From the sequence record ON113170.1: a stretch of DNA of 64,000 nt, one strand, 5' to 3'. The notes beneath the pieces were generated by a model. That model saw only the letters and a program-made list of their open reading frames with translations. It was not told the DNA's origin and ran no database searches. Shown here one piece after another: positions 3,026 through 64,000 of this stretch. The DNA is from Enterococcus phage vB_OCPT_CCS1. A program made the position numbers and the translations under genes. The first letter of the stretch is position 1; every line of letters starts with the position of its first letter.

Positions 3026-3561
3026 TGGCAACTGTATATCAATCTGCGGACTTGCTAAGATTCTTTCGTTACTTAAACGTAAACGTGCAAGGAGATGTCG
3101 TTAGTAATGTCATAGACGACCAACCTAACTTTATTTCTAGATTTTACACACCGCACACAAGAGTGAATAAAATATCTAGTACCTTATTAGATATTGTGAA
3201 AGACAATAACATTAGTGAAACAAATAAAGAGTTATCCAAGGATTCACTAACCTATAAGTTCTTGAAGAGTGGACTACGATTAACAGCTCCTGACATTTAC
3301 CAGTTAGCTCAAATCGTAGTACTTGAATCTTTTGCTTTAATTTATGCAATTGAAGAAAAACCTGAAATGTTCAAAATGATTAATGAATCAGATGTGAAAC
3401 AAACACGTGAAAACGTGAAGTATCTTGTGGACTACTTAGGGGAGAAAAAAGATTATACTGATATTGTAATGGATTTACACTCTATGGATATTGCCCTTGG
3501 TTATATTCAAGAACAGATTCCATTAATTCAAGGAGGGTTACCAGTAAATGGCACGATATAA
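3025..3561 (+). CDS. baseplate-associated protein
   Basis: Translationally coupled to both neighbours by overlapping stop/start. Confidence 0.45.
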   Translation: MATVYQSADLLRFFRYLNVNVQGDVVSNVIDDQPNFISRFYTPHTRVNKISSTLLDIVKDNNISETNKELSKDSLTYKFLKSGLRLTAPDIYQLAQIVVLESFALIYAIEEKPEMFKMINESDVKQTRENVKYLVDYLGEKKDYTDIVMDLHSMDIALGYIQEQIPLIQGGLPVNGTI

Positions 3562-4252: not shown

Positions 4253-4266
4253 AAAGGAGTATCCCT

Positions 4267-5319
4267 GTGAGACTAAAGAAAATTTCAGAAATTTTAGGTA
4301 GACTAATTGACGTAACCATGATTAACACTCATGAGTTAAACGACTTCTCTGTAGGGTCTACGATTCGTTCCATTTATGAAGCTGTATCAATGGAACTTGA
4401 ACAATACTACATTTTAGGAAGAGAAAATATTTTATGGGGGATTGAGCAGGGGGTACTAAATGCTTTCGACTTTAGAAAACGTGAAGCCAAACGAGCTTAC
4501 GGTATGGTGACTCTAGAGTTCCATACTGTAACACAAACCCCTGTTTATGTCCCTACAGGTACAACTTTTGACTCTAGCTTGTCTGGTGCACCTAGTAACT
4601 TGACATTCCAAACAATGCGAGACTATGTGATTCCTGCCGGAGTTGTTACAGCAAAAGTAGAAGTTTACTGTACGACAGTAGGTTCGAAAGGGAACATTGC
4701 TAAAGGTAGAATCAATCGTGTTATTAACAACATCTCTAACCTGAAAAAAGTGTATAATGAATATGACATACTTACTGGTACAGATGAAGAAAGTATTGAA
4801 TCTGTGAAGAAAAGGTTCCATGCTTTTGTTGAGTCCCGTGGTAGAGCTACGATTAAAGCTTTAGATTACGGTACACGACAAGTAGAAGAGGTATCCGGTG
4901 TGTATATCAAAGAGGAAGTTGGTTATGTACGTATTTACGCTCATGACTTGAACGGGGACTTAAAAGGTGAAACACTAGCTAAAATCAAAACAGCTATTGA
5001 AGACTATCGACCTGCGGGAATTAAACTAGATGTGTTCCCTGTAGTCAAACTTACAGTACCAATTGATGTAACAATCACAATTAATAATAAAAACAGAATT
5101 AACACTGCACTAGAAGAAAGAATTGAACTAACTATCAGAAACTATCTAAACAGTCGTACAGTATCTCAAACATTAGTGAAAGCTGACTTGTTACAGGCTA
5201 TCATGAATATTGATGATAACTTAATATATGACTGCGTAATTAATAACTTGGATGGTAACTTAGATATTAGAGACGAGGAAATCATTCGTGCAGGAGATGT
5301 AACAATAGAATTAATCTAG
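4267..5319 (+). CDS. baseplate J-like protein (gp6 family)
   Basis: 350 aa, follows the gp25-like gene as in myovirus baseplate cassettes. GTG start after AGGAGTA. Confidence 0.5.
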   Translation: MRLKKISEILGRLIDVTMINTHELNDFSVGSTIRSIYEAVSMELEQYYILGRENILWGIEQGVLNAFDFRKREAKRAYGMVTLEFHTVTQTPVYVPTGTTFDSSLSGAPSNLTFQTMRDYVIPAGVVTAKVEVYCTTVGSKGNIAKGRINRVINNISNLKKVYNEYDILTGTDEESIESVKKRFHAFVESRGRATIKALDYGTRQVEEVSGVYIKEEVGYVRIYAHDLNGDLKGETLAKIKTAIEDYRPAGIKLDVFPVVKLTVPIDVTITINNKNRINTALEERIELTIRNYLNSRTVSQTLVKADLLQAIMNIDDNLIYDCVINNLDGNLDIRDEEIIRAGDVTIELI

Positions 5320-5330
5320 GAGGTAAAATT

Positions 5331-8300
5331 GTGAGTAATTTTTTCAGAAACATACACCCACTCTTGCGAAGAAATAAACGTCCGGAGAAGTACGATGACA
5401 CGAATTTCGCTGTGTTAAATGCGTTGAATTATGAATTAACACAGGCAGAGCAAGAAACCATTGCTAGTAAAATACAATCCTCCTTAGAGTCTGCTACAGA
5501 TACGTACCTAGACACTTGGGGAGATTGGTTCGGGGTGTACCGTAAGGACGGTTGGGACGATGAGTACTATCGTGCACGTATCATACGGGAACTACTTCTT
5601 AAGCGTGGTACAATTCCTGCTATCATTGATGCACTAGTAGATTTTCTTAATGATAATGATGCAGTTGTTCAAATCTACGAACCATGGAGAAACATCTTCT
5701 ATACAAATAAATCTAAATTAAACGGTGATGACCACTTAATGGGTTATTACTACCGTTTTGCAATTATTGACATTTCAATTGACAGACCGTTTCCTCCTGA
5801 AATCGTAGAAATTATCAAGGCTTTCAAACCTGCGGGTGTTTTATTCTATCTAAGACTAGATACAAGCTTAGACAAGAATAAAACAACTGTAGAAAGTCCT
5901 TATGTATACTTAGACGTAACAAATAAAACAGAATTAGAGTTCCTTAACGGTTTGTATTATGACCTACGAGGTAACATTAACCTGTCTGACCAACGAACAC
6001 AAGTTGTGGGGAACAACATCTTCCACACAAATAACTCTAAGCTAAACGGAGAAGACGTGCTTGCAGGGGCGTTTAACCATGGACGAGGCTATATTCACTT
6101 AGCAAGTACCACATTGCTTGATTACACACCAAAAGCTACTGATTCTATGAGTAACTTAAAAACAACTCTAGGTGAAGCAGGCTCTGACATGTACAATCAA
6201 ACAAAAGAAAAAGACGGAAGAACAGCTTCTATTCAAGTACCTGCAACAAAAAATGTACACACCCTATACTCCAACAGTTTAGACTTTGGTGACTATGATT
6301 ATTCAACCGCACCAAACCTTTTGCCTACATTAGATTATTCTAAATTGAGTAAAAACGGCTCAGCTTTACAAACACCTTTACCATATATTAAAGACTATGG
6401 TGACTACTTTGTACTTGACTCTAATGACGCATCAGCGGTTGGAACGTCTAGAAACTGTTTTGTACCGTTTCTAACACGTTTAACTAAAGGTAAAACGTAT
6501 ACACTAAGCGTTAGTATGATGGTTGATGATGAGTTTGCGAACAATCAAGGTTATTATAATTCACCATTAAATTATACAATATCCACAACAAACCCAGCTA
6601 AATCAGATATAATAGCTAGTATATATTCGAGTGCTGATATGCGTAACCAATGGAAACGAGTGTCTAAAGTATTTACTGTACCAGCAAACCAAACAGACGG
6701 TGACTATGTATATTTACAACTATATCAAACCGCAGGTGTCAAAGGTAAATTATACATTCGTTATGATATGATGATTCAAGAAGGAGACCAAACCAGTTCT
6801 CAAGCACCAGCTAACCAAATGCCAAAAGTCGCAACTGATGATTATATGTTTTCACACCAGAATGTTACTAAGACTGAGGAAGATGGTAATATAACTAGTT
6901 TTAATAATTTACCAACTAGCGAACCTATTCGCAATATATACGTTAGGAACACAGAGGGTACTAAAAAACTAATTCCTTTGTTATCAGATAAAAAACAATA
7001 TACCATGAGCGTTGAAATGTGGTCTGAAAAAGAAGTAACACCAGTAATAAGATACCGTGTTAATGATAGTAATAACACACCCAAGTTCCCTTTAGAAATA
7101 GCTAATAAAAAAATACCAGCTAAACAATGGACTGAGGTGTCTGTTACGAACACGCTTGACTTACCAAGTAATCTCAATATGATTAAACCTGAGTCACAAA
7201 AACCAGTTACTAATAGTAACTATCTTATTAAAATCTATAACATTGAACCAATGGTAAAAGGCAAGAAGTATACCATCACATTGAAAGGTACAAAGCCAGA
7301 TACACAATCGTTTAGACCCTTCTTTACACGTGAAACTGGTACTCCGTGGGGTTTTGGTGATATGAAACTAGTTTCTGGTACTACAGACATTTATAGCGGA
7401 ACATTCACCGCTGCTGCAGATGCTCACCCAACTAGTCCGCAAGTTCAAATATATCAAGTACCAAATACTACAGTAGATGAGTGTACGATAGAATGGTTAA
7501 AACTAGAAGAAGGTGAAACTTATACACCTGACTACCCTCAACACTGGTTGCACATTGCTATTCCACAAGCATATGAAGGTACTATTAAAATCAAAAATGA
7601 TAGTATCAAAATCCAAGAGGGAGCAACAACAACAAAACCGGCTTGGAAACCTAATTTACTAGACGCTCCATATTATTTGAGTAAGGTGCCTTTGGGTGAG
7701 AATATTGCTAATAAAGATATTCAGTTTCCAATCAAAACCAGTGAATATCTTTCATATATCGCTAGAATGATAGAACCTTTTGTTGTAGGAGAAACTTATA
7801 CAATTACCATAAAAGCAACAAAACCAACCAGTCAAACGTTTATGGTTTATAACAGCGGTGTAGGGACTACTTATTACGGAAACCTAAAACCAGTTGAGGG
7901 ATTGACAGATGTATGGTCACTAACATTCACACCAACGAATGTTTCGTCAGTTAATCCTAGCGATTTACGTATATTTCAGTATCCATCATCAACAGTAGGC
8001 GCTGTTCAAATTGATTGGTTAAAAATCGAAAAAGGAGATACAAGAACTCCTAACATTGATTCCTACGACTATGTAGGCTCTCTGATAGAAGATACGGAAA
8101 CACCTACATTAGACCCGACTAAGTATACATGGACGGTAAATGGGGATGTAACAAATAAAAAGGCATATATGATATTTGACATTAAAACATTTATCGAAGA
8201 AAATTATGCTACAGAATTTGAAAAACTTGTTGCTGACCTAGGTGAAGACCAAGCGTTGAACGCTGTATTTGAAAATTTCAACATCTCTACAGCGCTTAAA

Positions 8301-17423: not shown

Positions 17424-17553
17424 AATGTCCTATTTTAAATTTTTGACCTCCTTATATATTTAATATTATATATTTAACTATTTATCTAAGTTATATGTAT
17501 TTATATATTATATATTTATATATAAGGGAACCAAAAATGGAAAATAGGACATT
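17422..17553. promoter_or_regulatory. AT-rich simple-sequence block flanked by ~14-bp inverted repeats; candidate origin/unwinding element or regulatory region
   Basis: AAAATGTCCTATTTT (17422-17436) and AAAATAGGACATT (17541-17553) are reverse complements. The interior is TATATATTTAATATTATATATTTA... Confidence 0.35.
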
Positions 17554-41519: not shown

Positions 41520-42716
41520 ATGGAACTAATAAATTTAAGTGCTAGAACACTACCCGAATTACACGGGAAGTTTCTTGTTGTAGAGACTCTATCAGACGGA
41601 TACACAGGAACCGTAAACGGTCATTATAACTATGAAGTTGTTACTAAAGGTGAGGACTATGAAATCTATCCCACACTTTGGAACAGCGAAAAAGCGCAGT
41701 TTGTAAAAGCTGACGAAATGGTTGTGTATACAAACGGAGATACTGTATTCTATGTAACAAGAACAACAAAAGACCCTTATAATCATGCTGTTATCAGTGA
41801 GTTAATCGTTGAAGAAGGAATGGACAAGGCTAAGCGTACCCTTCAAGCTTTCCGACTATTCGCAGACGATTTATTCTCTATTGGAAACTATAACGTGTTC
41901 TTAACACACCAAATTGGTGTAGTAGACAGCCCAAGTAACGTAAAAGTTGAATCAGTTTCCTTAGACAAAGAATCCGGAACATTATATGTAGGTGACACAG
42001 TAGAATTAACAGCAACTGTACTACCAGAAAATGCCACAGTCAAAGACGTAACATTCTCTGTTGTTCCAGAAGGAATCGCTACTGTAACTGCTACTGGTGC
42101 CAAGGCAACAGTTACAGCTAAAGTAAAAGGCTCAACTAACGTTATCGTAACTACATTAGACGGAGACAAAACAGCTCAATATGCTTTAACAGTGAAGGAA
42201 CACGTTTTAGTTTCTGGTATTACTTTAAACAAAGAAGCTACTTCAATTGTTAAAGGTGCTACAGAAACACTTGTTGCAACAGTAACTCCACCAGATGCAG
42301 AAAACAAAGCTGTAACATGGGCATCTGATAAACCTGCCGTAGCTATAGTAGACCAAAACGGGGAGGTCACAGCAGTAGATGGCGGTACAGCTAATATTAC
42401 TGCAACAACAGTTGACGGTAATAAAGTAGCAACTTGTGTTGTGACAGTAACTGTTCCTGTAACAAGCGTTACTTTAAACAAAGAAGCTACTTCAATTGTT
42501 AAAGGCGCTACAGAAACACTTATTGCAACAGTTGCCCCTACTAACGCAACAAATAAAAAAGTAACATGGAAATCTGATAACATGGGCATTGTTACTGTAG
42601 CCCAAAGCGGAGAGGTCACAGCAGTAGATGGCGGTACAGCTAACGTAACAGCAGAAACAGAAGATGGTAAGAGAGTAGCTACTTGTGCGGTAACAGTTAA
42701 CCCTGCACAAGCATAA
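41520..42716 (+). CDS. virion-associated protein: N-terminal domain paralogous to the 42743 gene, fused to three Ig-like (Big_2) repeats
   Basis: N-terminus FLVVETLSDGYTGTV...DPYNHAVISE...FLTHQIG. Three Big_2 units, the last two nearly identical at the DNA level (LNKEATSIVKGATETL[VI]ATV.P). Confidence 0.5.
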   Translation: MELINLSARTLPELHGKFLVVETLSDGYTGTVNGHYNYEVVTKGEDYEIYPTLWNSEKAQFVKADEMVVYTNGDTVFYVTRTTKDPYNHAVISELIVEEGMDKAKRTLQAFRLFADDLFSIGNYNVFLTHQIGVVDSPSNVKVESVSLDKESGTLYVGDTVELTATVLPENATVKDVTFSVVPEGIATVTATGAKATVTAKVKGSTNVIVTTLDGDKTAQYALTVKEHVLVSGITLNKEATSIVKGATETLVATVTPPDAENKAVTWASDKPAVAIVDQNGEVTAVDGGTANITATTVDGNKVATCVVTVTVPVTSVTLNKEATSIVKGATETLIATVAPTNATNKKVTWKSDNMGIVTVAQSGEVTAVDGGTANVTAETEDGKRVATCAVTVNPAQA

Positions 42717-56494: not shown

Positions 56495-58894
56495 AAACCA
56501 TTCGAAGACATTCTTGATGTGTTGAACAAAGCACGTCAGGACAAAGACAAGGTAACACTTACTTTTATTGAAGGACTAGATAATATTGCTAAACTTCAAA
56601 TTGAGGATTCTTCTGCTACAGCAGGAATCACTCGTTACGTAAAGTTTTATAACAATGACATCCGTAAGTTCCATTACGTTGACCAAGCTGATTTTGAAGA
56701 AATGTATGCAGGCTTAGAAATGAAAACAGGTAAACCAAAAGAAGAAACAATTGAGTTTCCTTCTGAGGAAGTGGGTATTATCAGTGCTTTAAAAATCTTG
56801 CAACAAAGTGGTGTCTTTAGTGATGAAGATGGAATGCTAACTCTAGGAATTAACACGTCTACATTGAAAGATGCTCACTATATCTTACAGTATATTGAGC
56901 CTGCAATTGACCGTTACTTTGAATCTTTGAATAAGGATATTGAAGAATTAGACCGTGTAACGATTGACCAATCAGATGAACTTAAACAAAAAATCTGGGA
57001 AAGCTTTGTATTTAGCAAAGATAATCTAAGCAAAATGCTAGATGACTTTGAATTGGCAACTCTAGACACGTTCCCAAATGTACCGTCTAATTTAATTGTT
57101 GAGACTTGTTCAGAAGTGAAGAAAACTCTTGAAGGGTTATTGATTAAAGATGCGGAAGAAAATCCTATTGAGTGTCATGATTACCTTGTTGAAGGTTTCG
57201 TTGGTGCTATTATCCGTATTGAACAATTTATTATTTCTGTTGCAACATTACCTTACCGTAGAACAGAACTAGAACTTAGAGAATCAAGAGAAGCTTATAT
57301 CAAAGAGCTTGCTTCAAATCTATTTATCTTTGCAGAAGCTATTGCTCAGGCGTATACTAGACTTGTATGCTCTATCTTAATGGAAAATTCTATTGATATG
57401 CACAATGCTTCTGAATATATCCAAGTTATGGAAACAAAAGCGGTTCACTGGGTAAAAGAAGAAGCATTAGGTGGAACTATGTTAGCTAACAATGAGGAAG
57501 ACCTCGTTGAGTTATCCCAAGCTTTAAACTCTATGACACTAGATGACGTACGTGAAACCCGAGAAGACCCCGAGAAGGCTGAGTTTAAAGAAGCTTTGGA
57601 AGAATTGCTTAATGAGTTGGCAGATGTTTTTTCAGAAGACGAGGACGACGAAGAAGTTGACGAAACAGAAGACGAAGATGAGGAAGAAATAAAACAAGCC
57701 TTATTAGAATCACTAGAAGACCTGTTACGTTCAATTCAAGCCCCTACTATGGAAGAAGGGGAAGAAGACAATGAGGCACTTTTCGAAGCACCTATGGTAG
57801 ACATGGATGACCTCCTTGGATATTCACTATCGAAGGAACCTACAGAAAAAGAAGAACCTGTAGAACTTTCAGATGATGCAAAAGCAGAGTTTGAGGAATA
57901 CTTTGCAGATGAAATCTACGAGCTTCAAGAACTCCGTAAAAAGGTAGAAGATGCTTTAACCATGTACGATAAGGTTACCGGTGAACTAGCATTAAACGAG
58001 TTAGATTCAGTAGCTATGGGAAATATTCAATTAGCAATTTCAACGTTACGAAGAGCGCTAGATAACACAGAGCTTGACTACACTAAGAAAGGCTTACTTG
58101 AATCGTTAGCTATTCTTAAAGGAGACAAACATACTTTTTATGTTGAATCCATTAGTGTTTTAGGAGATGCGTACGAGCTTTACAAAACACTTGGTGTAGG
58201 TATTACGGACTATGCACATGCAGTTGTTGAGGGCATTGAATGTTCTGTTGCGAATAAACGGGGTACAAACCCAGAAACACAATTTGTGTTGAGTACAGTT
58301 ACCCGTTTAATCGAACGTGAAATCGAAGCCTTAGAGGATGCTGAAGAATACTCAGATTTATTAGCCTTTTCTCTAGCCCTTTCACTGACTGCTGTGTTAG
58401 CAGATTGGAATAATTCATTTGGTGTAGTAAATGTTGATGTAAATGACTTTATCCCTAAGAAACGACCTTCTGTTGTTGTCGAAGGAGACGAAGAGGATGA
58501 AGAAGAAACAACAGACCTAGCTAAAGAGTTAAAAGACTTAATTCGTGGAACAGCACTAGATGCTGATACACAATCAGCTAGTGATATAGACGAAGAAGCC
58601 TTGATTGCTGACTACAAGAACGGTGTCTCACAGAGAGAACTCACAAAATGTTATAATATAAGTACAGGGAAGTTCTACTCAATTCTACGTAGACACGGTA
58701 TCGCAGTAGATAGCTCTAAAGTAGCTAAGAAAGTTGCGCATGTAGAAGAGAATCCAGAAGTACTTGAACGAGTTCTTAAAGATTATATTGAAGGTAAAAC
58801 ACTAGCATATATTTACTCAAATTACAATCTATATAAGAACGGCTTGTTCTATTTGCTAGACAAATACCAAGTTCCACGTAGAAACAAACGTTAA
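56492..58894 (+). CDS. 800-aa highly acidic protein with two C-terminal HTH-like motifs
   Basis: Asp/Glu tracts (DEDDEEVDETEDEDEEE; EGDEEDEEETTD). C-terminal LIADYKNGVSQRELTKCYNISTGKFYSILRRHGI and a second HTH-like repeat. Confidence 0.5.
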   Translation: MKPFEDILDVLNKARQDKDKVTLTFIEGLDNIAKLQIEDSSATAGITRYVKFYNNDIRKFHYVDQADFEEMYAGLEMKTGKPKEETIEFPSEEVGIISALKILQQSGVFSDEDGMLTLGINTSTLKDAHYILQYIEPAIDRYFESLNKDIEELDRVTIDQSDELKQKIWESFVFSKDNLSKMLDDFELATLDTFPNVPSNLIVETCSEVKKTLEGLLIKDAEENPIECHDYLVEGFVGAIIRIEQFIISVATLPYRRTELELRESREAYIKELASNLFIFAEAIAQAYTRLVCSILMENSIDMHNASEYIQVMETKAVHWVKEEALGGTMLANNEEDLVELSQALNSMTLDDVRETREDPEKAEFKEALEELLNELADVFSEDEDDEEVDETEDEDEEEIKQALLESLEDLLRSIQAPTMEEGEEDNEALFEAPMVDMDDLLGYSLSKEPTEKEEPVELSDDAKAEFEEYFADEIYELQELRKKVEDALTMYDKVTGELALNELDSVAMGNIQLAISTLRRALDNTELDYTKKGLLESLAILKGDKHTFYVESISVLGDAYELYKTLGVGITDYAHAVVEGIECSVANKRGTNPETQFVLSTVTRLIEREIEALEDAEEYSDLLAFSLALSLTAVLADWNNSFGVVNVDVNDFIPKKRPSVVVEGDEEDEEETTDLAKELKDLIRGTALDADTQSASDIDEEALIADYKNGVSQRELTKCYNISTGKFYSILRRHGIAVDSSKVAKKVAHVEENPEVLERVLKDYIEGKTLAYIYSNYNLYKNGLFYLLDKYQVPRRNKR

Positions 58895-58952
58895 CTTCCA
58901 AATAACTTTAGGCAGTGGCTACTATGGTCACTGCCTTTAATAAGGAGAATAT

Positions 58953-59405
58953 TTGTTGGAAGAGACGGTTTATAATTTTATACAAGGTTTAACTAACACA
59001 CAGTTAGTTATACTAGAAGATATATTTGCTTTACTAGGACTAATCTTTATACTTATAGGAATACATCTTTTGGTAGAAGATACAGTTGAGTGGGTGAAAC
59101 TAGTTAAGAATCCAAAAGTTTCCACGTTTGCAACAATACACATGTATTTTACTTTTTATCTACCGATGTTCATTTTCTTTTTGGTAGATGGTAGTACGGT
59201 TACTACTTTTGTTGTTTCATTACTGATGTTTGCTGTTGTGTATACATGGATTGTCTGGTTTCGGGTGGGTAGATACACAGAAAATTGGTCAGTAGTACGT
59301 CCATTTGTTACCTACATTAAAGCACAAGACCATGTGTGTACGTTAGTTATTGGTTCAATACTTTTAAGAACAGTACTATTTTTTATAAAGATTAGGATAG
59401 GTTAA
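58953..59405 (+). CDS. polytopic membrane protein (about four TM helices)
   Basis: TTG after AATAAGGAGAATATTTG. Hydrophobic spans LVILEDIFALLGLIFILIGIHLL, YFTFYLPMFIFFLV, FVVSLLMFAVVYTWIVWF. Confidence 0.5.
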   Translation: MLEETVYNFIQGLTNTQLVILEDIFALLGLIFILIGIHLLVEDTVEWVKLVKNPKVSTFATIHMYFTFYLPMFIFFLVDGSTVTTFVVSLLMFAVVYTWIVWFRVGRYTENWSVVRPFVTYIKAQDHVCTLVIGSILLRTVLFFIKIRIG

Positions 59406-59432
59406 GATAGGATAGGATGGAGGATAAGATAG
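59395..59432. repeat. TAGGATAGGA-type short array immediately upstream of a start codon
   Basis: GATTAGGATAGGTTAAGATAGGATAGGATGGAGGATAAGATAGATG. Confidence 0.55.
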
Positions 59433-59993
59433 ATGAATGAAATAATGAGTTATGTTTGGTTGGGTGTGTTTATTGCTATACCTGTAATTGGCTTTATCTA
59501 TGTATATAACTACAATAAAAAAAATCCACGTTGGTACCTTCGTAAAAGCTATTGGGCGCCACTAGTGCTAGACTTAGTTGTTTTTGGTGTTTGGGCGTTT
59601 ATAGGTATAGGTACATTGGATGTTGGACATACAGAGACAATTGTTAAAACCTTTAACATTGAGCCACTTACTGTTTATAGCTCACCAGAAAATATTTATG
59701 CAAAGATAGGTAGCACGGATAACAGTTATGTTAACTTTGCAATTACAGGTAAGGGAACTCACTCTGCACCACTTGGTAACACTAGTATCCATTACGTTGA
59801 GTACGAAGGTAGACCGAAAGTCATGGTTACTTACTACAAATTAGATTCCCCTCTCTCAGCATTTATGGGAATACAAGGGATGCTTGTAGACAGTAAAACT
59901 CGTATAGACATTCAAGTTCCTATAGGCGGAGTCGATGTTACAAATACAGGTAGCACCTTTGAAGAGCAATCAGTAAACGACTTACTCAAATAA
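59433..59993 (+). CDS. N-terminally membrane-anchored protein (186 aa)
   Basis: One or two N-terminal TM helices (VWLGVFIAIPVIGFIYV; LVLDLVVFGVWAFIGIG) followed by a soluble domain. Confidence 0.5.
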   Translation: MNEIMSYVWLGVFIAIPVIGFIYVYNYNKKNPRWYLRKSYWAPLVLDLVVFGVWAFIGIGTLDVGHTETIVKTFNIEPLTVYSSPENIYAKIGSTDNSYVNFAITGKGTHSAPLGNTSIHYVEYEGRPKVMVTYYKLDSPLSAFMGIQGMLVDSKTRIDIQVPIGGVDVTNTGSTFEEQSVNDLLK

Positions 59994-59996
59994 TTC

Positions 59997-60060
59997 CCTA
60001 AGTAGCAGGCTACAAAAATCCTCTAAGTAGCAGGTTACAAAAAAACCTAAGTAGCAGGCT
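59997..60060. repeat. three direct ~25-bp repeats, CTAAGTAGCAGGCTACAAAAA type
   Basis: Each unit contains GTAGC-N2-GCTAC inverted arms. Same family as the 62444-62615 array. Confidence 0.6.
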
Positions 60061-60092
60061 AGAGACATCTTTTATAGGTGTCTCTTTTTTTG
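60061..60092 (+). terminator. rho-independent terminator
   Basis: AGAGACATCTTTTATAGGTGTCTCT followed by TTTTTTTG. Confidence 0.7.
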
Positions 60093-60171
60093 TTGACATC
60101 CCTATACAATCATGCTACGATATACATGTAGATAAGGGAAGCCAGAATAAATAAAAAATTTGAGCTTACCT

Positions 60172-60200
60172 ATTGACATTAAACAATGCAGGCTGTACAA
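60172..60200 (+). promoter_or_regulatory. strong sigma-A-type early promoter with conserved leader
   Basis: TTGACA-17-TACAAT followed by AGACTTGTAAGATAAAA. Confidence 0.6.
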
Positions 60201-60235
60201 TAGACTTGTAAGATAAAACAAAGGAGGAAATTACA

Positions 60236-60472
60236 ATGGAAAAACAAAAACAAGTGATTACAAGAAAACAATACGAGGAAATTATGGCACGTTATGACAA
60301 GGTAGACTATGCTATCATCGCAGGGTTCATTATCTTTGGTACAGTTATCTTTGGTTTCGGGGGATTTGTCTTTATGGCTGTTGTTGGTGCGTTTACGTTC
60401 CCACGTATGAAACAAAAAAGCATTAATTTAATAGAGCAAGACTACATTGTTAGAGATGACATTCAACAGTAA
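60236..60472 (+). CDS. small membrane protein (78 aa)
   Basis: Central hydrophobic span AIIAGFIIFGTVIFGFGGFVFMAVVGAF. Confidence 0.45.
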   Translation: MEKQKQVITRKQYEEIMARYDKVDYAIIAGFIIFGTVIFGFGGFVFMAVVGAFTFPRMKQKSINLIEQDYIVRDDIQQ

Positions 60473-60533
60473 GCTTAATTGTTGACTATGGAAATTACAG
60501 GTGTTAATATAATGGTACAAGGAGGACAAAGAA

Positions 60534-60782
60534 ATGGCAGAGGCAAAGAAAAGCTATGCTGACATGACAGAGGAGGAAGCACAATATGCAATGGTATTAG
60601 GTGCTAGAATCGCTCATGCACGAGAAGGGTTAGGTATTAGTCAAGGAGAACTAGGTAAGTTAGCAGGTTTCAATCAAACAACTATCTCTTTAATTGAGAC
60701 CGGTAAACGGCTACCTAACTTAAAGACCCTTATCAGATTGAGTAAGATTCTTAAAAAAAGTTTGAAAATTACATTGGAATGA
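60534..60782 (+). CDS. XRE-family helix-turn-helix regulator (82 aa)
   Basis: LGISQGELGKLAGFNQTTISLIETGKR is a Cro/CI-type HTH. Confidence 0.55.
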   Translation: MAEAKKSYADMTEEEAQYAMVLGARIAHAREGLGISQGELGKLAGFNQTTISLIETGKRLPNLKTLIRLSKILKKSLKITLE

Positions 60783-60814
60783 GGTAGAGAAAATAAAACA
60801 GGGGGAGATTTATT

Positions 60815-60925
60815 ATGACAACGAAAGTAAAAGAAACAAAATCAAAAGTAAAGAATGGTGAACGTACACCAATAGTAGGATTCTATTTATATAATTTAAG
60901 AGTCCTGATTCTACCGTATATTTAA
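60815..60925 (+). CDS. small 36-aa ORF with strong RBS
   Basis: GGGGGAGATTTATTATG. Its end is embedded in a 9-bp-stem hairpin. Confidence 0.3.
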   Translation: MTTKVKETKSKVKNGERTPIVGFYLYNLRVLILPYI

Positions 60926-60950
60926 CAGGAATGTGCGGTAGAATTTTATT
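60908..60950 (+). terminator. stem-loop terminator
   Basis: ATTCTACCG-17 nt-CGGTAGAAT followed by TTTTATTTAT. Confidence 0.5.
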
Positions 60951-60963
60951 TATACAAACCTAT

Positions 60964-60992
60964 TGACAATAAACAATAGAAGAGTTATACTA
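60964..60992 (+). promoter_or_regulatory. sigma-A-type early promoter
   Basis: TTGACA-17-TATACT. Confidence 0.55.
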
Positions 60993-61017
60993 TGTATGAA
61001 GATAAGGAAAGGGAGAG

Positions 61018-61350
61018 ATGACAATGTTAAACTTTAACAAACATGTAACAGTAGAGGATATTATTAGAGATGGAGAATATGACGATGCAGTGGTAGAACA
61101 TATTATTGCTGAACTAGAATCGAGTGACAAGAAGAAACTAGCTTTGTTCAAACAGTGGGTCGCAGACAAGAAGGAAGACGGAGACACGGAAGCTGTTGAA
61201 CACTTTAAAGATATGACGGACAAAGAAGTATTAGTATATATGGACTTAGATGAGATTGTAGAGTACTATGAAGAAACAGGTCTTGCAGATTTTGCAAACA
61301 GCTTGGACATTGATTGGACAGGTTTGCTAGAAAGTTTTGGAGTAGAATAG
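61018..61350 (+). CDS. hypothetical acidic protein (110 aa)
   Basis: ATG after AAAGGGAGAG. Confidence 0.45.
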   Translation: MTMLNFNKHVTVEDIIRDGEYDDAVVEHIIAELESSDKKKLALFKQWVADKKEDGDTEAVEHFKDMTDKEVLVYMDLDEIVEYYEETGLADFANSLDIDWTGLLESFGVE

Positions 61351-61363
61351 GGGGTTAAGACTA

Positions 61364-61852
61364 ATGTATGATATGGTAACTAAAAAGAAAAGAAATCAAG
61401 AAATTGTACGTATGAGACAAGCAGGAAAAACGTTTAAGGATATTGCTTCTGAGTATAACATTTCTCAACAACGAGTACAACAGATATACAAACGAGAAAC
61501 CTCGTTAAATAAGATTAGACCTAAAGCGGGTAGACCAAGAAAGGACGAAATTGATGAGAAACGAACAGACATTAGTACTTTTGCAGTAACGAAGAGACAG
61601 AGAGAAAGAATAGTTCAACAAGCTGAAAAGGAAGGAAAGCCAGTTAAGGAGGTAGTTGATTCTATTATTTTTAATACAATGAGTGGGAAATACAACAGCC
61701 TTTTCCATAAAAAAGGTGGAGATAACAAACAGGTTCCTATGGTAGGGAATAAACAACTGTTAGATGCTTTACGTGCATATCTTGGTGCATATGAGGAAAC
61801 CCCATCAGAGGCGTTAAGACTAGTTATAGATAGGATATACGGGGATGAATAG
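61364..61852 (+). CDS. HTH DNA-binding protein (sigma-70 region-4-like)
   Basis: EIVRMRQAGKTFKDIASEYNISQQRVQQIYKRE. Confidence 0.5.
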   Translation: MYDMVTKKKRNQEIVRMRQAGKTFKDIASEYNISQQRVQQIYKRETSLNKIRPKAGRPRKDEIDEKRTDISTFAVTKRQRERIVQQAEKEGKPVKEVVDSIIFNTMSGKYNSLFHKKGGDNKQVPMVGNKQLLDALRAYLGAYEETPSEALRLVIDRIYGDE

Positions 61853-61990
61853 CTATTAGGATAGGATGATAGGATACACTTAGGATAAGGTAGGATAGGA
61901 TAAGGTAGGATAGGTTTAGGATAGGATACACTTAGGATAGGTTTAGGATAGGATACACTTAGGATAGGATAGGATAGGATGAAAGGGGAT
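61852..61990. repeat. ~135-bp array of TAGGATAGGA/AGGATACACTTAGGATAGG units
   Basis: GGATAGGATACACTTAGGATAGG occurs three times; also GGTTTAGGATAGGATACACTT twice. Ends 10 nt before the ATG of the next gene. Related to 59395-59432. Confidence 0.65.
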
Positions 61991-61998
61991 ATGATACA

Positions 61999-62448
61999 AT
62001 GTTAGGTACAGCAGAATATGATACACTTAGAGAGTATTTAGTAGCCGTAATTCATAACCAAATTAGTGAGGGTGAGAGAGACACACAAAGCTTAGACGTA
62101 TGGAAGGAAGAGGTTGACAAGCTGACAGTAGACAATTGGAGAGAACGTTGCATGAACCTAGCAGATTTGTTATATGTAGACACTCCCGCTTCACTGGCAG
62201 ACATTTACAAAGACTATAAAGAGGAGCTAAATGAAATACTCAGAGATTACACAGATGAGTTACGTGCAGGAGCTACGTTCAATAAGGTAGCTGATGAGCG
62301 CCTAGGGTGGATGTGGGAAGATTATGACCCATTAATACTAGAAGCACATAATCAAGGTCTAGTGGCTCGTCTAGGGCTTCTAATCGTTGCTGAACAACTT
62401 GCTACTCAATTAGAACAAGGGACGTTTACAATACCATATGATAACTAA
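61999..62448 (+). CDS. hypothetical acidic protein (149 aa)
   Basis: ATG directly downstream of the TAGGATAGGA array (GAAAGGGGATATGATACAATG). Confidence 0.45.
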   Translation: MLGTAEYDTLREYLVAVIHNQISEGERDTQSLDVWKEEVDKLTVDNWRERCMNLADLLYVDTPASLADIYKDYKEELNEILRDYTDELRAGATFNKVADERLGWMWEDYDPLILEAHNQGLVARLGLLIVAEQLATQLEQGTFTIPYDN

Positions 62449-62615
62449 GTAACAGGCTAGCCTAAGTAACGGGCTAGCTTTTTTCTTCTAAGTAGCAGGT
62501 TAGCTAAAATTCTCTAAGTAGCGGGCTACAATAAAAAACCCTAAGTAGCGGGCTACAAAAATCCTCTAAGTAGCGGGCTACAAAAATCCTCTAAGTAGCG
62601 GGCTACAAACAGCTT
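62444..62615. repeat. seven direct ~25-bp repeats, CTAAGTAGCGGGCTACAAAAATCCT type (iteron-like array)
   Basis: Units at about 62444, 62467, 62497, 62520, 62545, 62570 and 62595. The last three are essentially identical. Each contains GTAGC-GG-GCTAC. Confidence 0.7.
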
Positions 62616-62700
62616 ATAAAGTTCCGAAGCGTGGCATCCGACCGCCAGACTTGCCACCTTTGCCCGTTTGATCTGCCACCACTTAAACCCGTTTTTTCCT
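62616..62700. other. GC-rich island (about 60% GC) directly after the iteron-like array
   Basis: GTTCCGAAGCGTGGCATCCGACCGCCAGACTTGCCACCTTTGCCCGTTTGATCTGCCACCAC with a GTGGCA/TGCCAC stem and repeated GCCACC. No ORF. Confidence 0.4.
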
Positions 62701-62832
62701 TATATATAGAAGAAAAAGTTTTTCATCTTTTTTAGTGTTTTATATTGACATTAAGAAATAAGCATGGTATAGTATAGACAGTTAAAGAAAGGAGCTAACA
62801 AAAAAATAAATAAAAAAATTTAAAAAAAGTTA

Positions 62833-62861
62833 TTGACAAAAAGAAATAGACCTGATACAAT
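62833..62861 (+). promoter_or_regulatory. strong sigma-A-type early promoter with conserved leader
   Basis: TATTGACAAAAAGAAATA...TACAAT followed by AAACTTGTAAGATAAATAA. Confidence 0.6.
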
Positions 62862-62898
62862 AAACTTGTAAGATAAATAAAAGAAAGAGGGACTAAAA

Positions 62899-63174
62899 AT
62901 GGAAAAACAAATTATTGTAAACTTTTTAAAAGAGATTGAAAAAAATATTAAAATGGTAAACAGGGGTTTAAAATCTGAAAATGAGGCATACAGCGAACTT
63001 GTCGGAATGTATAACGGTATTAAGTTAGCAATGAAAACAATCAATCCCGACACGGTAAACATGGATTTGCATTATACACGTAAAACACTTGACAACTTAT
63101 TTTTAGGAACAAACGAGCAAAAAGAAAACGCCTTAAAAGCTTTGGAAAATGCTTTACTAATTACAGAAAACTAA
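62899..63174 (+). CDS. hypothetical early protein (91 aa)
   Basis: ATG after AAGAAAGAGGGACTAAAA. Confidence 0.45.
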   Translation: MEKQIIVNFLKEIEKNIKMVNRGLKSENEAYSELVGMYNGIKLAMKTINPDTVNMDLHYTRKTLDNLFLGTNEQKENALKALENALLITEN

Positions 63175-63184
63175 CATATAAAAC

Positions 63185-63203
63185 GGCGGGACACGTTCCC
63201 GCC
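63185..63203. terminator. GC-rich stem-loop, probable terminator
   Basis: GGCGGGACACGTTCCCGCC. A-tract upstream but a weak T-tract downstream. Confidence 0.35.
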
Positions 63204-63239
63204 TTACATAAAAAAATAAAAAATTTTTATGTTTATCTA

Positions 63240-63268
63240 TTGACAAAAAGAAATATAGATGATAATAT
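63240..63268 (+). promoter_or_regulatory. sigma-A-type early promoter
   Basis: TTGACA-17-TAATAT. Confidence 0.5.
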
Positions 63269-63296
63269 AAAGACATAGAAAGAGAGAGGGGAAAAC

Positions 63297-63425
63297 ATGA
63301 AAAGAGTAAAAGCCTTTTTAATCGCAAGAAAGGAAAATAAAGAAGTAAAAGAGATTTTACAGACAAGAAGCAAGGCAATAAACGAGCTTAAAAATTTAAA
63401 TAAAAAACTTATACAAAACTATTGA
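63297..63425 (+). CDS. small 42-aa basic ORF
   Basis: ATG after AGAGAGAGGGGAAAAC. Not in ORF track. Its end overlaps the -35 of the next promoter. Confidence 0.3.
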   Translation: MKRVKAFLIARKENKEVKEILQTRSKAINELKNLNKKLIQNY

Positions 63426-63450
63426 CAAAAAGAAATAAACGATATATAAT
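63422..63450 (+). promoter_or_regulatory. strong sigma-A-type early promoter
   Basis: TTGACA-17-TATAAT followed by AAATATGTAAGGTAAAACAAGGAGG. Confidence 0.6.
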
Positions 63451-63485
63451 AAATATGTAAGGTAAAACAAGGAGGAAAAAGAAAC

Positions 63486-63674
63486 ATGCAAAAGAAACTA
63501 TACAAGAAAAGAGATTTTTATAAAAAGCTGGCTTCATTCGCTGTTATGTTTTTACTTGGTTCAGTTGTTACGGCGGTATTTTCGTTTACAGTGTCACTTA
63601 TTATCGGCTTGACTTTGTTCGTTTTTGCTTTTATGATTTTCGATGATTTAGATTATACAGTAAAAAATAAGTAA
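63486..63674 (+). CDS. small membrane protein (62 aa)
   Basis: Two hydrophobic spans (LASFAVMFLLGSVVTAVFSFTV; LIIGLTLFVFAFMIF). Confidence 0.45.
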   Translation: MQKKLYKKRDFYKKLASFAVMFLLGSVVTAVFSFTVSLIIGLTLFVFAFMIFDDLDYTVKNK

Positions 63675-63694
63675 AAAAAATTAATCAAATCTAT

Positions 63695-63723
63695 TGACAT
63701 TAAACAATAAACAATATATAATA
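63695..63723 (+). promoter_or_regulatory. strong sigma-A-type early promoter with conserved leader
   Basis: TTGACA-17-TATAAT followed by AAACATGTAAGATAAATAAG. Confidence 0.6.
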
Positions 63724-63758
63724 AACATGTAAGATAAATAAGAAAGAGAGTGATAAAA

Positions 63759-64000
63759 ATGGAAAACACAAAAAAATATACATTAGAGGACTTGAAACAA
63801 CTAGCAAAAGAAAGCGGGTTTGAAATTGAGGAGGTAAAACCAAAATTACACGATATTAATCGTTATTATTGGAGCGGTAGCATTTATGGCGGTTCAGACT
63901 TCATTTTTATTGACCACGATTTAAAAATTATTGTAACAGGTAACACACGAGCAACAAAAAGCGACATGTATACAAGAAATAACACGGAATGCAAACGAAA
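63759..64000 (+). CDS. early protein, 3' end truncated by window edge
   Basis: ATG after AAGAAAGAGAGTGATAAAA. Reading frame open to the end of the window. Confidence 0.4.
   Translation, partial: MENTKKYTLEDLKQLAKESGFEIEEVKPKLHDINRYYWSGSIYGGSDFIFIDHDLKIIVTGNTRATKSDMYTRNNTECKR

Follow-up and report, generated by a model that had tools for sequence, protein, structure and literature searches.

A TAGGA repeat array between two early genes of an Enterococcus phage: a candidate 5' boundary element acting on mRNA

The stretch of DNA analysed here, a 64,000-nt window from Enterococcus phage vB_OCPT_CCS1 (ON113170.1; Schiekvirus, Herelleviridae), carries an array of TAGGA repeats between two small genes on the + strand. 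The upstream gene (61364-61852, +) encodes a 162-aa protein with an N-terminal HTH (HTH_28 / Sigma70_r4-like). The C-terminal part of this protein is common to an alternative 214-aa gene, and one record labels the 214-aa homolog as ribbon-helix-helix (RHH); a search of the 162-aa protein against PDB sequences revealed nothing meaningful. The downstream gene (61999-62448, +), with its ATG at 61999, encodes an acidic 149-aa protein (pI 4.2; PHROG 17103, function unknown), which was found in 33 phage records only, comprising Schiekvirus and three records filed under Kochikohdavirus. No toxin domain was detected in the 149-aa protein, and its single-sequence AlphaFold2 model was all-helical, with a pLDDT of 57, and unusable. 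The Shine-Dalgarno (SD) sequence of this gene, AAAGGGGA (61982-61989, +), is kept in all relatives, and the record of phage 113 annotates a ribosome-binding site (RBS) there.

A sigma-A-type early promoter (TTGACA-17-TATACT, 11/12) was predicted at 60963-60991 (+) and would drive transcription from 61018 through 61364 and the array to 61999. At the stop codon of the 149-aa gene begins a trailer (62445-62609, +) of seven CTAAGTA(G/A)C(G/A)GGCTA(C/G) units with a period of ~25 nt, inside which an intrinsic terminator was predicted (62454-62480, +). Within the main array itself, neither a promoter nor a terminator was predicted. The array was thereby placed inside an early operon, between the predicted consensus promoter and the predicted terminator, and the independent annotation of phage 113 agrees with this placement.

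The main array (61857-61980, +) contains 16 exact TAGGA units, broken up by ACACT and GGTT blocks. From the base composition, ~0.2 exact TAGGA would be expected between 61852 and 61990, where all 16 lie. Similarly, TAGGATAGG showed 11 matches in the window, all on the + strand, vs 0.36 expected from shuffles; nine of these fall into the main array and two lie at 59393-59416. Tandem Repeats Finder assigned a period of 5 (TAGGA) with 24 copies to 61857-61980, together with higher-order periods of 11, 16 and 34, and a perfect 27-nt higher-order unit, TAGGATAGGTTTAGGATAGGATACACT, is present in two copies at 61906 and 61933. The spacing between TAGGATAGG starts varies among 5, 11 and 16 nt and is often 10-11 nt. 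The TAGGA array is real and strongly non-random, and the first-pass annotation, which had called its regularity far beyond chance, was correct on this point. The coordinates also agree with the extent it had given, from the upstream stop codon to the downstream RBS: the last codon of the upstream ORF occupies 61850-61852 and the first TAGGA follows five bases on. At the other end the SD adjoins the array as described, although the repeats proper stop at 61980 and the SD is a separate element. The repeat unit reported there in three copies is an exact 23-mer, GGATAGGATACACTTAGGATAGG, in two cases only (61919 and 61946), the third, near 61868, being imperfect, while GGTTTAGGATAGGATACACTT does occur twice. 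In the 146-nt intercistronic gap (61853-61998), 8 of 146 nucleotides are C and stop codons are found in all three frames.

A scan of ~155 kb of the genome revealed the TAGGATAGG motif at two places only, the main array and a mini-array that likewise precedes a start codon. This mini-array, TAGGATAGGTTAAGATAGGATAGGATGGAGGATAAGATAG (40 nt; 59393-59432, +), covers the stop codon of a 150-aa gene and the RBS (GGAGG, 59419-59423) of a 186-aa gene with a predicted N-terminal membrane segment (59433-59993, +; PHROG 33649). Behind the 186-aa gene lies the trailer of this first cassette (59997-60085, +), with three CTAAGTAGCAGG(C/T)TA units followed by a predicted terminator (60061-60085). The mini-array was kept in 14 of the 14 relatives examined (L001-L014), several of which differ by one unit.

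Comparison with 21 related sequences showed that the main array is kept in every one of them, in 21 different arrangements of ~60-146 nt. The 3' end of the array and the SD are identical across these sequences; the interior differs each time. Copy-number variation among isolates, which the first-pass annotation had suggested looking for, is thus present. The same annotation had taken absence from all relatives, combined with no binding by phage proteins, as a sign of neutral slippage, a sign that was not seen, since the array is present in all 21. In some relatives the upstream HTH gene is exchanged for a TM2-domain gene and the array stays; altogether, three different genes adjoin its left edge. 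Two independent gene insertions were found within the array, an HNH endonuclease in iF6 and an 80-aa ORF in phage 156, and the array copies beside both insertions are degenerate. Of the 33 phage records, 29 encode the 162-aa protein, either complete or as a truncated remnant, or else the distant 214-aa homolog, and in the loci examined the 162-aa/214-aa-type gene sits directly upstream of the array. The genomes of PEF1, phiSHEF13, TJE1 and EfsSzw-1 contain no homolog of the HTH protein and keep arrays of ~60-130 nt. Judged from these sequences, the array is independent of the upstream gene.

Similar arrays are present in Staphylococcus phages (Kayvirus and Silviavirus SA11), Brochothrix phage A9 (Klumppvirus) and Listeria phage P100 (Pecentumvirus), and no homolog of the 162-aa protein was found in these array-bearing phages. 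The motif lies on the sense strand at 7 of the 7 Herelleviridae sites examined. Kayvirus carries arrays at two adjacent junctions, and its array is located inside the terminal repeat, not at the edge. In Kayvirus, SA11 and A9 the array stands directly before an SD and an ATG; the P100 array has no downstream ORF. In the other genera the trailer consists of clustered TAAGTAGC-type repeats at a terminator, and the pair of leader (array) and trailer in five genera brackets non-homologous small ORFs, with none bracketed in P100. Two of the interruptions, CTTAGGATAGG and AAACTTAGGATAG, are common to Enterococcus and Staphylococcus phages, and P100 and MCE-2014 have 10-17 unbroken units. Among unrelated (GGATA)n arrays of viral contigs and bacterial genomes, those with an ORF start within 14 nt were oriented in sense in 27 cases and in antisense in seven (binomial p = 0.0008). 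In other genomes, (GGATA)n arrays mostly lie away from start codons, so the motif also acts as an ordinary microsatellite. No phage paper came up when the repeat strings were searched for in full-text literature.

Several candidate functions were considered and rejected. An Rfam search of 58500-64000 with E up to 5 gave no match, and the array RNA was no more stable than shuffled sequences. Pairing between leader and trailer RNA (the array with the CTAAGTAGC repeats), an idea that came from the shared ACTTAGG / CCTAAG, did not exceed that of dinucleotide shuffles in either cassette. A late or middle promoter was dismissed, neither of the late -10 motifs known from the family, TGTTATATTA and TGCTATATTA (PMC7698491, PMC12282133), being present. 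An extended -10 look-alike before the ATG, TGATACAAT, is not conserved, relatives having AGGATACAAT, AGGATATAAT or AGGATAGGAT instead, and transcription from it would begin within the ORF. An upstream mini-ORF overlapping the start codon (61979-62005) is not conserved either, since its ATG is CTG in PEF1. A two-tetrad G-quadruplex, (GG N3)4, would be unfavourable by a rough hand estimate of the ViennaRNA G-quadruplex energy term. Translational bypassing of the T4 gene 60 type (GGA-UAG) was dismissed because the upstream ORF ends before the array, which leaves no in-frame take-off codon. The locus also does not resemble a type III antitoxin (ToxI-like): its repeats measure 5 nt, or 27 nt for a larger unit present in just two copies, vs units of ~34-40 nt, no terminator precedes the gene, and the downstream protein is acidic and not a basic endoribonuclease.

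We tentatively favour a reading in which a small early-gene expression cassette has the array as its 5' boundary element, acting on the mRNA, and give it somewhat less than an even chance. Each TAGGA unit, read directly from the sequence, fuses a UAG stop with an AGGA SD core, and a period of 5, being coprime with 3, places stops in all three frames. The early promoter at 60963 would transcribe the array as an untranslated gap between two cistrons. Given stops in all frames, any ribosome coming from the interchangeable upstream gene would be terminated in the array, and the C-poor array RNA would remain single-stranded and present ~16 weak sites to the 3' end of the 16S rRNA. The RNA of the array region is indeed predicted to be unstructured (-21 kcal/mol over 191 nt, z = -1.0 vs shuffles). 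Pairing with the anti-SD at -4 kcal/mol or better was calculated for 80% of the array 10-mers vs 16% window-wide; the array units reach -6 to -7 kcal/mol, weaker than canonical GGAGG, and the true SD reaches -11.8 kcal/mol. The units would keep 30S subunits or post-termination ribosomes beside the strong SD, as a standby or re-initiation track, and ribosome occupancy would shield the distal cistron against 5'-to-3' decay, by analogy with the STAB-SD and SP82 stabilisers. The TAAGTAGC/terminator trailer would close the cassette on its 3' side. Slippage or unequal recombination would let the length of the array drift, and the phage may do without much of the array; its repeats would also mark the junction at which upstream genes are swapped or inserted. 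Several observations count against this mRNA-level function. Promoter and terminator are predictions, the array units match the SD weakly and the P100 array lacks a downstream ORF. Given the strength of the true SD, ribosome recruitment does not require the array. Classical 5' stabilisers are near the RNA 5' end; the predicted primary 5' end lies ~870 nt upstream, and a stabiliser role would therefore require a putative processing event.

The sense-strand orientation suits a DNA-level element less well but would be compatible with one. The suggestion of the first-pass annotation that the adjacent HTH protein binds the array in an autoregulatory manner did not hold up: the array follows the HTH gene within the operon, at no predicted promoter, and it outlasts replacement or absence of that gene, both in the several relatives with another upstream gene or no homolog and in the Staphylococcus, Listeria and Brochothrix phages, which argues against an autoregulatory operator. 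More generally, a phage DNA-binding protein, for example the adjacent HTH/RHH-like one, may bind the repeats cooperatively and block or modulate transcription into the 149-aa gene. The proximity of the 162-aa-type gene to the array, its occurrence in most of the records and the frequent distance of 10-11 nt between TAGGATAGG starts are in line with such binding, as is the RHH label of one homolog, RHH proteins typically binding tandem short repeats. We nevertheless consider it unlikely, because protein and array are not strictly co-inherited (4 of 33 genomes contain the array and no homolog, as do the array-bearing phages from the other three host genera), no promoter is predicted in or beside the array, the alternation of 5, 11 and 16 nt does not keep the sites on one helix face, the mini-array is 2.4 kb off in another operon, and the motif is in sense at all seven Herelleviridae sites. 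Classical phase variation, also raised in the first-pass annotation, fits the copy-number polymorphism among close isolates expected of a contingency locus and conflicts with the position of the repeats, which lie neither within coding sequence nor between -35 and -10 hexamers. A role as replication origin or as a site of packaging or terminal-repeat processing, the last of the functions proposed there, seems extremely improbable. In its favour, origins and pac sites typically contain direct repeats, the array belongs to the early-gene zone that precedes the terminal repeat, the cut points of several GenBank records are close by, and the TAAGTAGC trailer resembles the 12-bp TAAGTACCTGGG repeats bracketing the terminal repeats of K-like phages (PMC6022877). 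On the other side, we found no GC-skew inflection, the array is embedded in an operon in sense orientation, the Kayvirus array lies within the terminal repeat and off its edge, and the terminal repeats determined or predicted for the close relatives iF6 and phage 163 are ~5.5 kb downstream of the array (PMC10054541, PMC9860891).

Three further explanations share features with the proposed mRNA-level boundary element. A repeat-reading RNA-binding protein of the TRAP, HutP or CsrA type might use the array as a target, repressing translation by binding on the SD side, or as a sponge that titrates the protein. TRAP and HutP read (U/G)AG triplets and CsrA reads GGA motifs; in the gap 61853-61998, 18 (G/U)AG triplets are present along with 17 GGA motifs, a series that reaches up to the SD, the UAG-GA-UAG spacing of 2 nt is the one preferred by TRAP, and the unbroken units of P100 and MCE-2014 would suit such a protein. 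Measured against TRAP sites (at least nine (G/U)AG triplets with 2-3-nt spacers) or HutP sites (sets of three UAG with 4-nt spacers), however, the longest in-register run in the window comprises four triplets. A sponge of the CsrB/RsmZ type is not apparent either, as the RNA is unstructured, has no hairpins presenting GGA in loops, no promoter or terminator of its own and no Rfam match. Tblastn searches with approximate TRAP, HutP and CsrA queries against the window and the rest of the phage 113 genome gave only matches with E > 2, and the Enterococcus and Staphylococcus hosts are not known to encode TRAP or CsrA. We regard this explanation as very unlikely. Improbable, to a lesser degree, is a neutral micro- or minisatellite, in which an AGGA-containing seed was expanded by polymerase slippage and only the last unit and the SD matter. 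Such a repeat would account for the different length and arrangement in every relative, for the degenerate copies beside the iF6 and phage 156 insertions and for the pure (GGATA)n tracts that are common in unrelated viral and bacterial genomes, mostly away from genes. It accounts less readily for the loss of the main array in 0 of 21 relatives and of the mini-array in none of the 14 examined, for the equivalent positions in five genera of the family, for interruptions that are themselves repeated and shared (CTTAGGATAGG, AAACTTAGGATAG), for the absence of the motif from the remaining ~150 kb of the genome and for the sense-orientation bias. We are similarly doubtful that the array is in essence a recombination linker or mobile cassette boundary like the PeSLs, where homology in leader and trailer lets unrelated small genes swap. 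The three genes at the left edge, the two independent insertions in iF6 and phage 156, the bracketing of non-homologous ORFs in five genera (none in P100) and the PeSL precedent (PMC2839356, PMC4122927) point in this direction. Against it, the motif carries no promoter, unlike PeSLs, recombination at the repeats is deduced from end states, homology of this kind could come just as well from any conserved flank, and the sense-strand, SD-adjacent placement is left unexplained. A recombination linker is compatible with the mRNA-level boundary element and may be the evolutionary reason why the motif persists.

Leader and TAAGTAGC-type trailer could also form a paired cis-acting system across the Herelleviridae, with both motifs read by a putative common factor, an extension that we regard as rather unlikely. 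The sites behind it are those in Schiekvirus (twice), Kayvirus, Silviavirus, Klumppvirus A9 and Pecentumvirus P100. Candidates for such a factor would be a phage protein that is conserved or, on the host side, an RNA or a ribosome-associated component shared by the Bacilli. The system would define portable early-gene cassettes and control how they are translated and how long their mRNA lasts, or how they pass between phages that infect different host genera. A leader paired with a 3' repeat, in five genera on four host genera, is not described in the literature searched, and the pairing offers a testable handle on the expression and exchange of early ORFans in Herelleviridae. If the array does act on the mRNA as a boundary element, it would be a built-in, easily resized module of all-frame stops and ribosome landing sites that frees gene expression from whatever recombination places upstream, which would solve a problem of mosaic genomes in a simple way and offer a possible component for engineered therapeutic phages of Enterococcus and Staphylococcus. 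Even a neutral array would still be useful as a hypervariable typing marker for closely related therapeutic phages.

Among known systems, iteron- or centromere-like RHH arrays (omega heptads, parC) are similar in having short direct repeats beside the gene of a small DNA-binding protein; the TAGGA array differs in lying off a promoter, being kept without the protein, having irregular spacing and being oriented with transcription. TRAP/HutP sites and CsrB-type RNAs share many UAG/GGA motifs with short regular spacing that end at an SD, whereas the runs of the array are interrupted (four or fewer in register), no GGA is presented in loops and no cognate protein was detected in the phage. Ribosome standby sites and reinitiation tethers are likewise unstructured, lie upstream of an RBS and can hold a 30S or post-termination ribosome, and the array starts at the upstream stop codon. 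To our knowledge, known standby sites are not SD-like pentamer repeats, and 146 nt is long for bacterial re-initiation. For the trailer alone, the TAAGTACCTGGG repeats of K-like phages have the TAAGTA core, repetition and family in common (PMC6022877); they lie at terminal-repeat boundaries, in contrast to the Schiekvirus trailer, which is ~5 kb from the terminal repeat and consists of direct copies with a 25-nt period at an operon end. The PeSLs of T4-type phages are short conserved regulatory motifs around variable, often ORFan early genes at insertion or replacement junctions (PMC2839356, PMC4122927). A motif pair bracketing variable ORFs at indel junctions was found here as well, in another phage family and other hosts; instead of the PeSL composite of early promoter and stem-loop, a promoterless SD-like repeat stands on the 5' side and a TAAGTAGC repeat with a terminator on the 3' side. 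In the STAB-SD of cryIIIA and the SP82 polypurine sequence, ribosomes that bind without translating protect the mRNA from 5'-to-3' decay (PMC7509114, PMC3997798), and these two reviews, citing Hue et al. (1995) and Agaisse & Lereclus (1996), describe stabilisation of Bacilli mRNA, SP82 mRNA included, by SD-like sequences without translation. While ~16 weak tandem units stand here against one strong SD there, and the array is internal to a predicted polycistronic transcript whereas the known elements are at a mapped 5' end, it shares their sequence character, being purine-rich, complementary to the 3' end of 16S rRNA and not the RBS or start site of a gene, as well as their setting in Bacilli, SP82 being an SPO1-like phage.

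Tandem Repeats Finder revealed a period-5 array of 24 copies of the unit TAGGA at 61857-61980 (+ strand); higher-order periodicity was seen at 11, 16 and 34. The first-pass annotation had described an array spanning from the stop codon of the HTH gene to the RBS of the following gene, and this placement holds: the array starts 5 nt past the TAG stop of the 162-aa gene (61364-61852) and ends at the Shine-Dalgarno sequence (SD) AAAGGGGA (61982-61989, + strand) of the 149-aa gene, 10 nt from its ATG at 61999. The intercistronic gap of 146 nt contains 8 C bases and has stops in all three frames. The density and regularity of the array are indeed far beyond chance, with 16 exact TAGGA units in 139 nt (~0.2 expected) and TAGGATAGG matching the window 11 times, always on the + strand (0.36 expected from shuffles). 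A 23-mer reported to occur three times has two exact copies, the third being imperfect, and a perfect 27-nt unit is present twice, at 61906 and 61933. The two TAGGATAGG copies outside the main array lie in a mini-array of 40 nt (59393-59432, + strand), which runs from the stop of the 150-aa gene through the GGAGG of the 186-aa gene. The ~92 kb of the complete relative phage 113 that lie beyond the window contain no TAGGATAGG. The 18-nt block AGGATAGGATACACTTAG of the array is repeated with 89% identity as AGAATATGATACACTTAG at 62013-62030, near the start of the 149-aa ORF (within its first 30 nt; repeat family D12).

A sigma-A-type consensus promoter (11/12) is predicted at 60963-60991 (+ strand), with a predicted terminator ahead of it (60907-60945) and the next one downstream at 62454-62480; neither promoter nor terminator was predicted across the array. 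The independent annotation of phage 113 agrees with this layout, with an RBS before ORF78, a terminator after it and no feature between ORF77 and ORF78. Based on this layout and annotation, the array is predicted to be the untranslated gap between the 162-aa and the 149-aa gene of an early operon in which a 110-aa gene comes first. An HTH (HTH_28, HTH_23, Sigma70_r4) was identified at the N-terminus of the 162-aa protein; the product of the 149-aa gene is acidic and an ORFan, assigned to PHROG 17103. Near-identical promoter modules of ~60 nt, each ahead of a small ORF, were found at 60153-60217, 62813-62877, 63402-63466 and 63674-63738, and also at 60950, 62743 and 63238. They consist of an A-rich UP-like stretch, TATTGACA, a 17-nt spacer, TACAAT or TATAAT, and AAACTTGTAAGATAAA. 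Such modules are typical of host-takeover early genes in SPO1-like phages. Elsewhere in the window, a 249-nt tandem duplication within a coding region (42220-42687; 1.9 copies, 81% identity) looks like a duplicated protein domain, and a TA-rich low-complexity tract of 72 nt (17452-17523) comprises 9 TTATATAT-like copies.

The 2.5 kb around the array matched 33 Enterococcus phage records with 85-96% identity, phages 163 and 113 being closest. These phages belong to the genus Schiekvirus (Herelleviridae, Brockvirinae), as does the window. Schiekviruses are myoviruses with a strictly lytic life cycle, and their genomes of ~150 kb end in direct terminal repeats ~2.1 kb long (PMC10054541, PMC9860891). 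Comparison of the region 5' of the 149-aa gene in 20 related genomes or contigs detected the array in all of them, whereas the first-pass annotation had named absence from all relatives, together with a lack of binding by phage proteins, as the sign of neutral slippage. The last units and the SD are common to all; the interior is unlike in every relative (~60-146 nt, 9-19 TAGGA units), so that the suggested check for copy-number variation among isolates gave a positive answer. Slippage or unequal exchange among units of 5, 11, 16 and 27 nt best explains this variation. The mini-array is kept in 14 of 14 relatives examined, with a one-unit difference in several.

The gene left of the array is the 162-aa HTH gene in most relatives, a 214-aa gene in GVEsP-1, UTI-EfS3 and EA1, and a TM2-domain gene in PEF1, phiSHEF13, TJE1 and EfsSzw-1. 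The 214-aa and 162-aa proteins share only their C-terminal 106 residues (31% identity). Searches with tblastn revealed no homolog of the 162-aa protein in the whole genomes of the latter four phages, which retain arrays of ~60-130 nt, nor in any non-Enterococcus phage. The array thus travels with the site and the downstream RBS, not with the HTH gene. Two independent insertions were found within it, an HNH homing endonuclease gene on the opposite strand in iF6 (4258-4821 of the extracted locus L004) and an 80-aa ORF in phage 156 (1085-1327 of locus L092), both with array remnants on either side, the right-hand one more degenerate. Together with the exchange of the left gene, these insertions identify the array as a junction for gene replacement and insertion. 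Phage 156 (LR031359.1) and vB_EfaH_149 are filed under Kochikohdavirus, yet carry a Schiekvirus-type module (186-aa gene, remnant of the 162-aa gene, array, 149-aa gene).

Exact scans of IMG/VR with TAGGATAGGATAGGAT and CTTAGGATAGGATA detected, besides Schiekvirus contigs, four further groups of Herelleviridae. In the Staphylococcus Kayvirus phages MCE-2014, LM12 and Stab20, an array with phage-specific copy number occupies the gap between TreF and the next gene in the terminal-repeat early operon, and a second mini-array, TAGGATAGGAGGGATAGGATG, lies ahead of TreH. In Staphylococcus Silviavirus SA11, a predicted promoter (TTTACA-17-TACACT) is directly followed by TAGGATAGGATAAAGGAGG and a 135-aa ORF; here GATACACTTAGGATAGG, as found in the 18-nt block, forms the predicted -10 box and leader start. 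Brochothrix phage A9 has a complex TTAGGATA(G) array between the gp8 stop and the SD of gp9, and Listeria phage P100 a pure (GGATA)17 after gp102, then a hairpin and T-run; no ORF follows. All of these arrays have the G-rich sequence on the sense strand, and sequence detail is common across host genera, e.g. AAACTTAGGATAG in both phiSHEF13 and Kayvirus. The flanking proteins compared across genera had no Pfam or PHROG family in common and were not similar by BLAST. Outside phages, MAGs of Candidatus Gastranaerophilales / Melainabacteria are strikingly rich in (TAGGA)n of at least 19 nt, which occurs at several loci in each genome (genome contig scan, L165-L233), and in Candidatus Endomicrobiellum agilis (TAGGA)n stands 1 nt ahead of the ATG in paralogous genes (L236).

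Each gene behind a TAGGA array in the window is followed, from its stop codon on, by a second kind of repeat, CTAAGTAGC(G/A)GGCTAC, which recurs every ~25 nt. This trailer comprises three units at 59997-60061 and seven units at 62445-62609. Its unit includes the palindrome GTAGCnnGCTAC and does not recur in the rest of the genome; a predicted terminator lies at the end of, or within, each cluster. In the other lineages, [AT]AGTAG[CG] clusters with 22-30-nt spacing begin ~10 nt or less from where the last ORF behind the array stops. They were located at 4868-4942 in A9 (locus L163), 4702-4791 in Stab20 (L087), 5807-5878 in LM12 (L089), 3379-3450 in MCE-2014 (L036) and 4830-4915 in a further locus, L088. 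Only one or two copies occur in SA11 (990 and 1177 of L097, reverse strand) and in P100 (CTAAGTAGCCAGC and CCTAAGTAGCAGGCTAC, ~100-170 nt past the array). Since the trailer recurs at the same position, the order TAGGA array, zero to two unrelated small ORFs, TAAGTAGC-type repeats and terminator is conserved in five genera. In the window, a GC-rich and C-rich stretch of ~90 nt without an ORF (62610-62700, …CCGAAGCGTGGCATCCGACCGCCAGACTTGCCACC…) separates the trailer repeats from the first strong early promoter (62745); it has no Rfam match and an ordinary fold (z = -1.2).

Every TAGGA unit supplies both a UAG stop and an AGGA SD core, stops falling in all frames, and the array RNA is weakly folded (-21 kcal/mol over 191 nt, z = -1.0). 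Duplex energies against the Bacilli 16S 3' tail, its sequence taken from general knowledge, were -6 to -7 kcal/mol for array units and -11.8 for the real SD; 10-mers pairing with the anti-SD at -4 kcal/mol or better made up 80% in the array vs 16% in the window. We also scored the orientation of unrelated (GGATA)n arrays with an ATG-ORF start at most 14 nt away, which was sense in 15 of 18 cases in viral contigs and 12 of 16 in bacterial genomes (pooled, 27 sense vs 7 antisense, p = 0.0008). This bias indicates that (GGATA)n repeats touching a gene do so as ribosome-binding sequence. The only recognition partner that Enterococcus, Staphylococcus, Listeria and Brochothrix are known to share in identical form is the anti-SD, which would explain a motif conserved without any common phage protein.

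We tentatively favour an RNA-level leader, at somewhat less than even probability. Ribosomes arriving from the interchangeable upstream gene would be terminated in the array, others would be kept beside the strong SD of the 149-aa gene, the distal cistron would probably be protected, and trailer and terminator would close the 3' end. Any effect on translation or stability is extrapolated here from in silico anti-SD pairing. Against the leader stand the strength of the true SD, the predicted position inside an operon (classical stabilisers sit at the RNA 5' end), the P100 array without an ORF behind it, and the plain microsatellite character of most (GGATA)n tracts elsewhere.

A DNA operator bound by the neighbouring HTH/RHH-like protein is unlikely: arrays are kept in phages without the 162-aa protein and in other genera, where its homolog was not found, no promoter is predicted in the array, and the sense-strand rule applies. 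The same points weaken the autoregulatory binding first suggested for the adjacent protein. Another protein may bind the array, though with low probability. We give low probability to a PeSL-like recombination linker (PMC2839356, PMC4122927), which fits the gene swaps and insertions as well as the bracketing of non-homologous ORFs and is compatible with a leader. Neutral slippage accounts for the variability, but we doubt it because no relative lacks the array at either of two sites and five genera retain it. A target of TRAP, HutP or CsrA type would fit the UAG and GGA content; however, the longest in-register run is 4 triplets, no loops present GGA and a homolog is not detectable in the phage, which makes such a target very unlikely. 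An origin or pac site is extremely improbable, since no support was found for the replication or packaging element proposed earlier and the Schiekvirus terminal repeat lies ~5.5 kb further on.

Full-text literature searches with the repeat strings found no phage paper, and term searches in the text of papers that describe the genomes and transcriptomes of iF6, phage 163, Kayvirus 515A1 and P100-like CKA15 gave no description of the repeats. The array is real, conserved and testable, and occurs in therapeutic phage genera; its mechanism we infer, and part of the repeats may be neutral. The unexpected part is the conserved pairing of array and trailer. K-like phages carry 12-bp TAAGTACCTGGG repeats at their terminal-repeat boundaries (PMC6022877) and these share the TAAGTA core with the trailer unit, whereas the Schiekvirus terminal repeat lies ~5.5 kb beyond the trailer (PMC9860891, PMC10054541). 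In Bacilli, an SD-like sequence can protect mRNA from 5'-to-3' decay without being translated, one classic case being an early mRNA of the SPO1-like phage SP82; the primary work cited for this is Hue et al. 1995, Agaisse & Lereclus 1996 and Daou-Chabo et al. 2009 (PMC7509114, PMC3997798). The array is best filed as akin to such SD-like leader or stabiliser elements and to the boundaries of regulatory cassettes.
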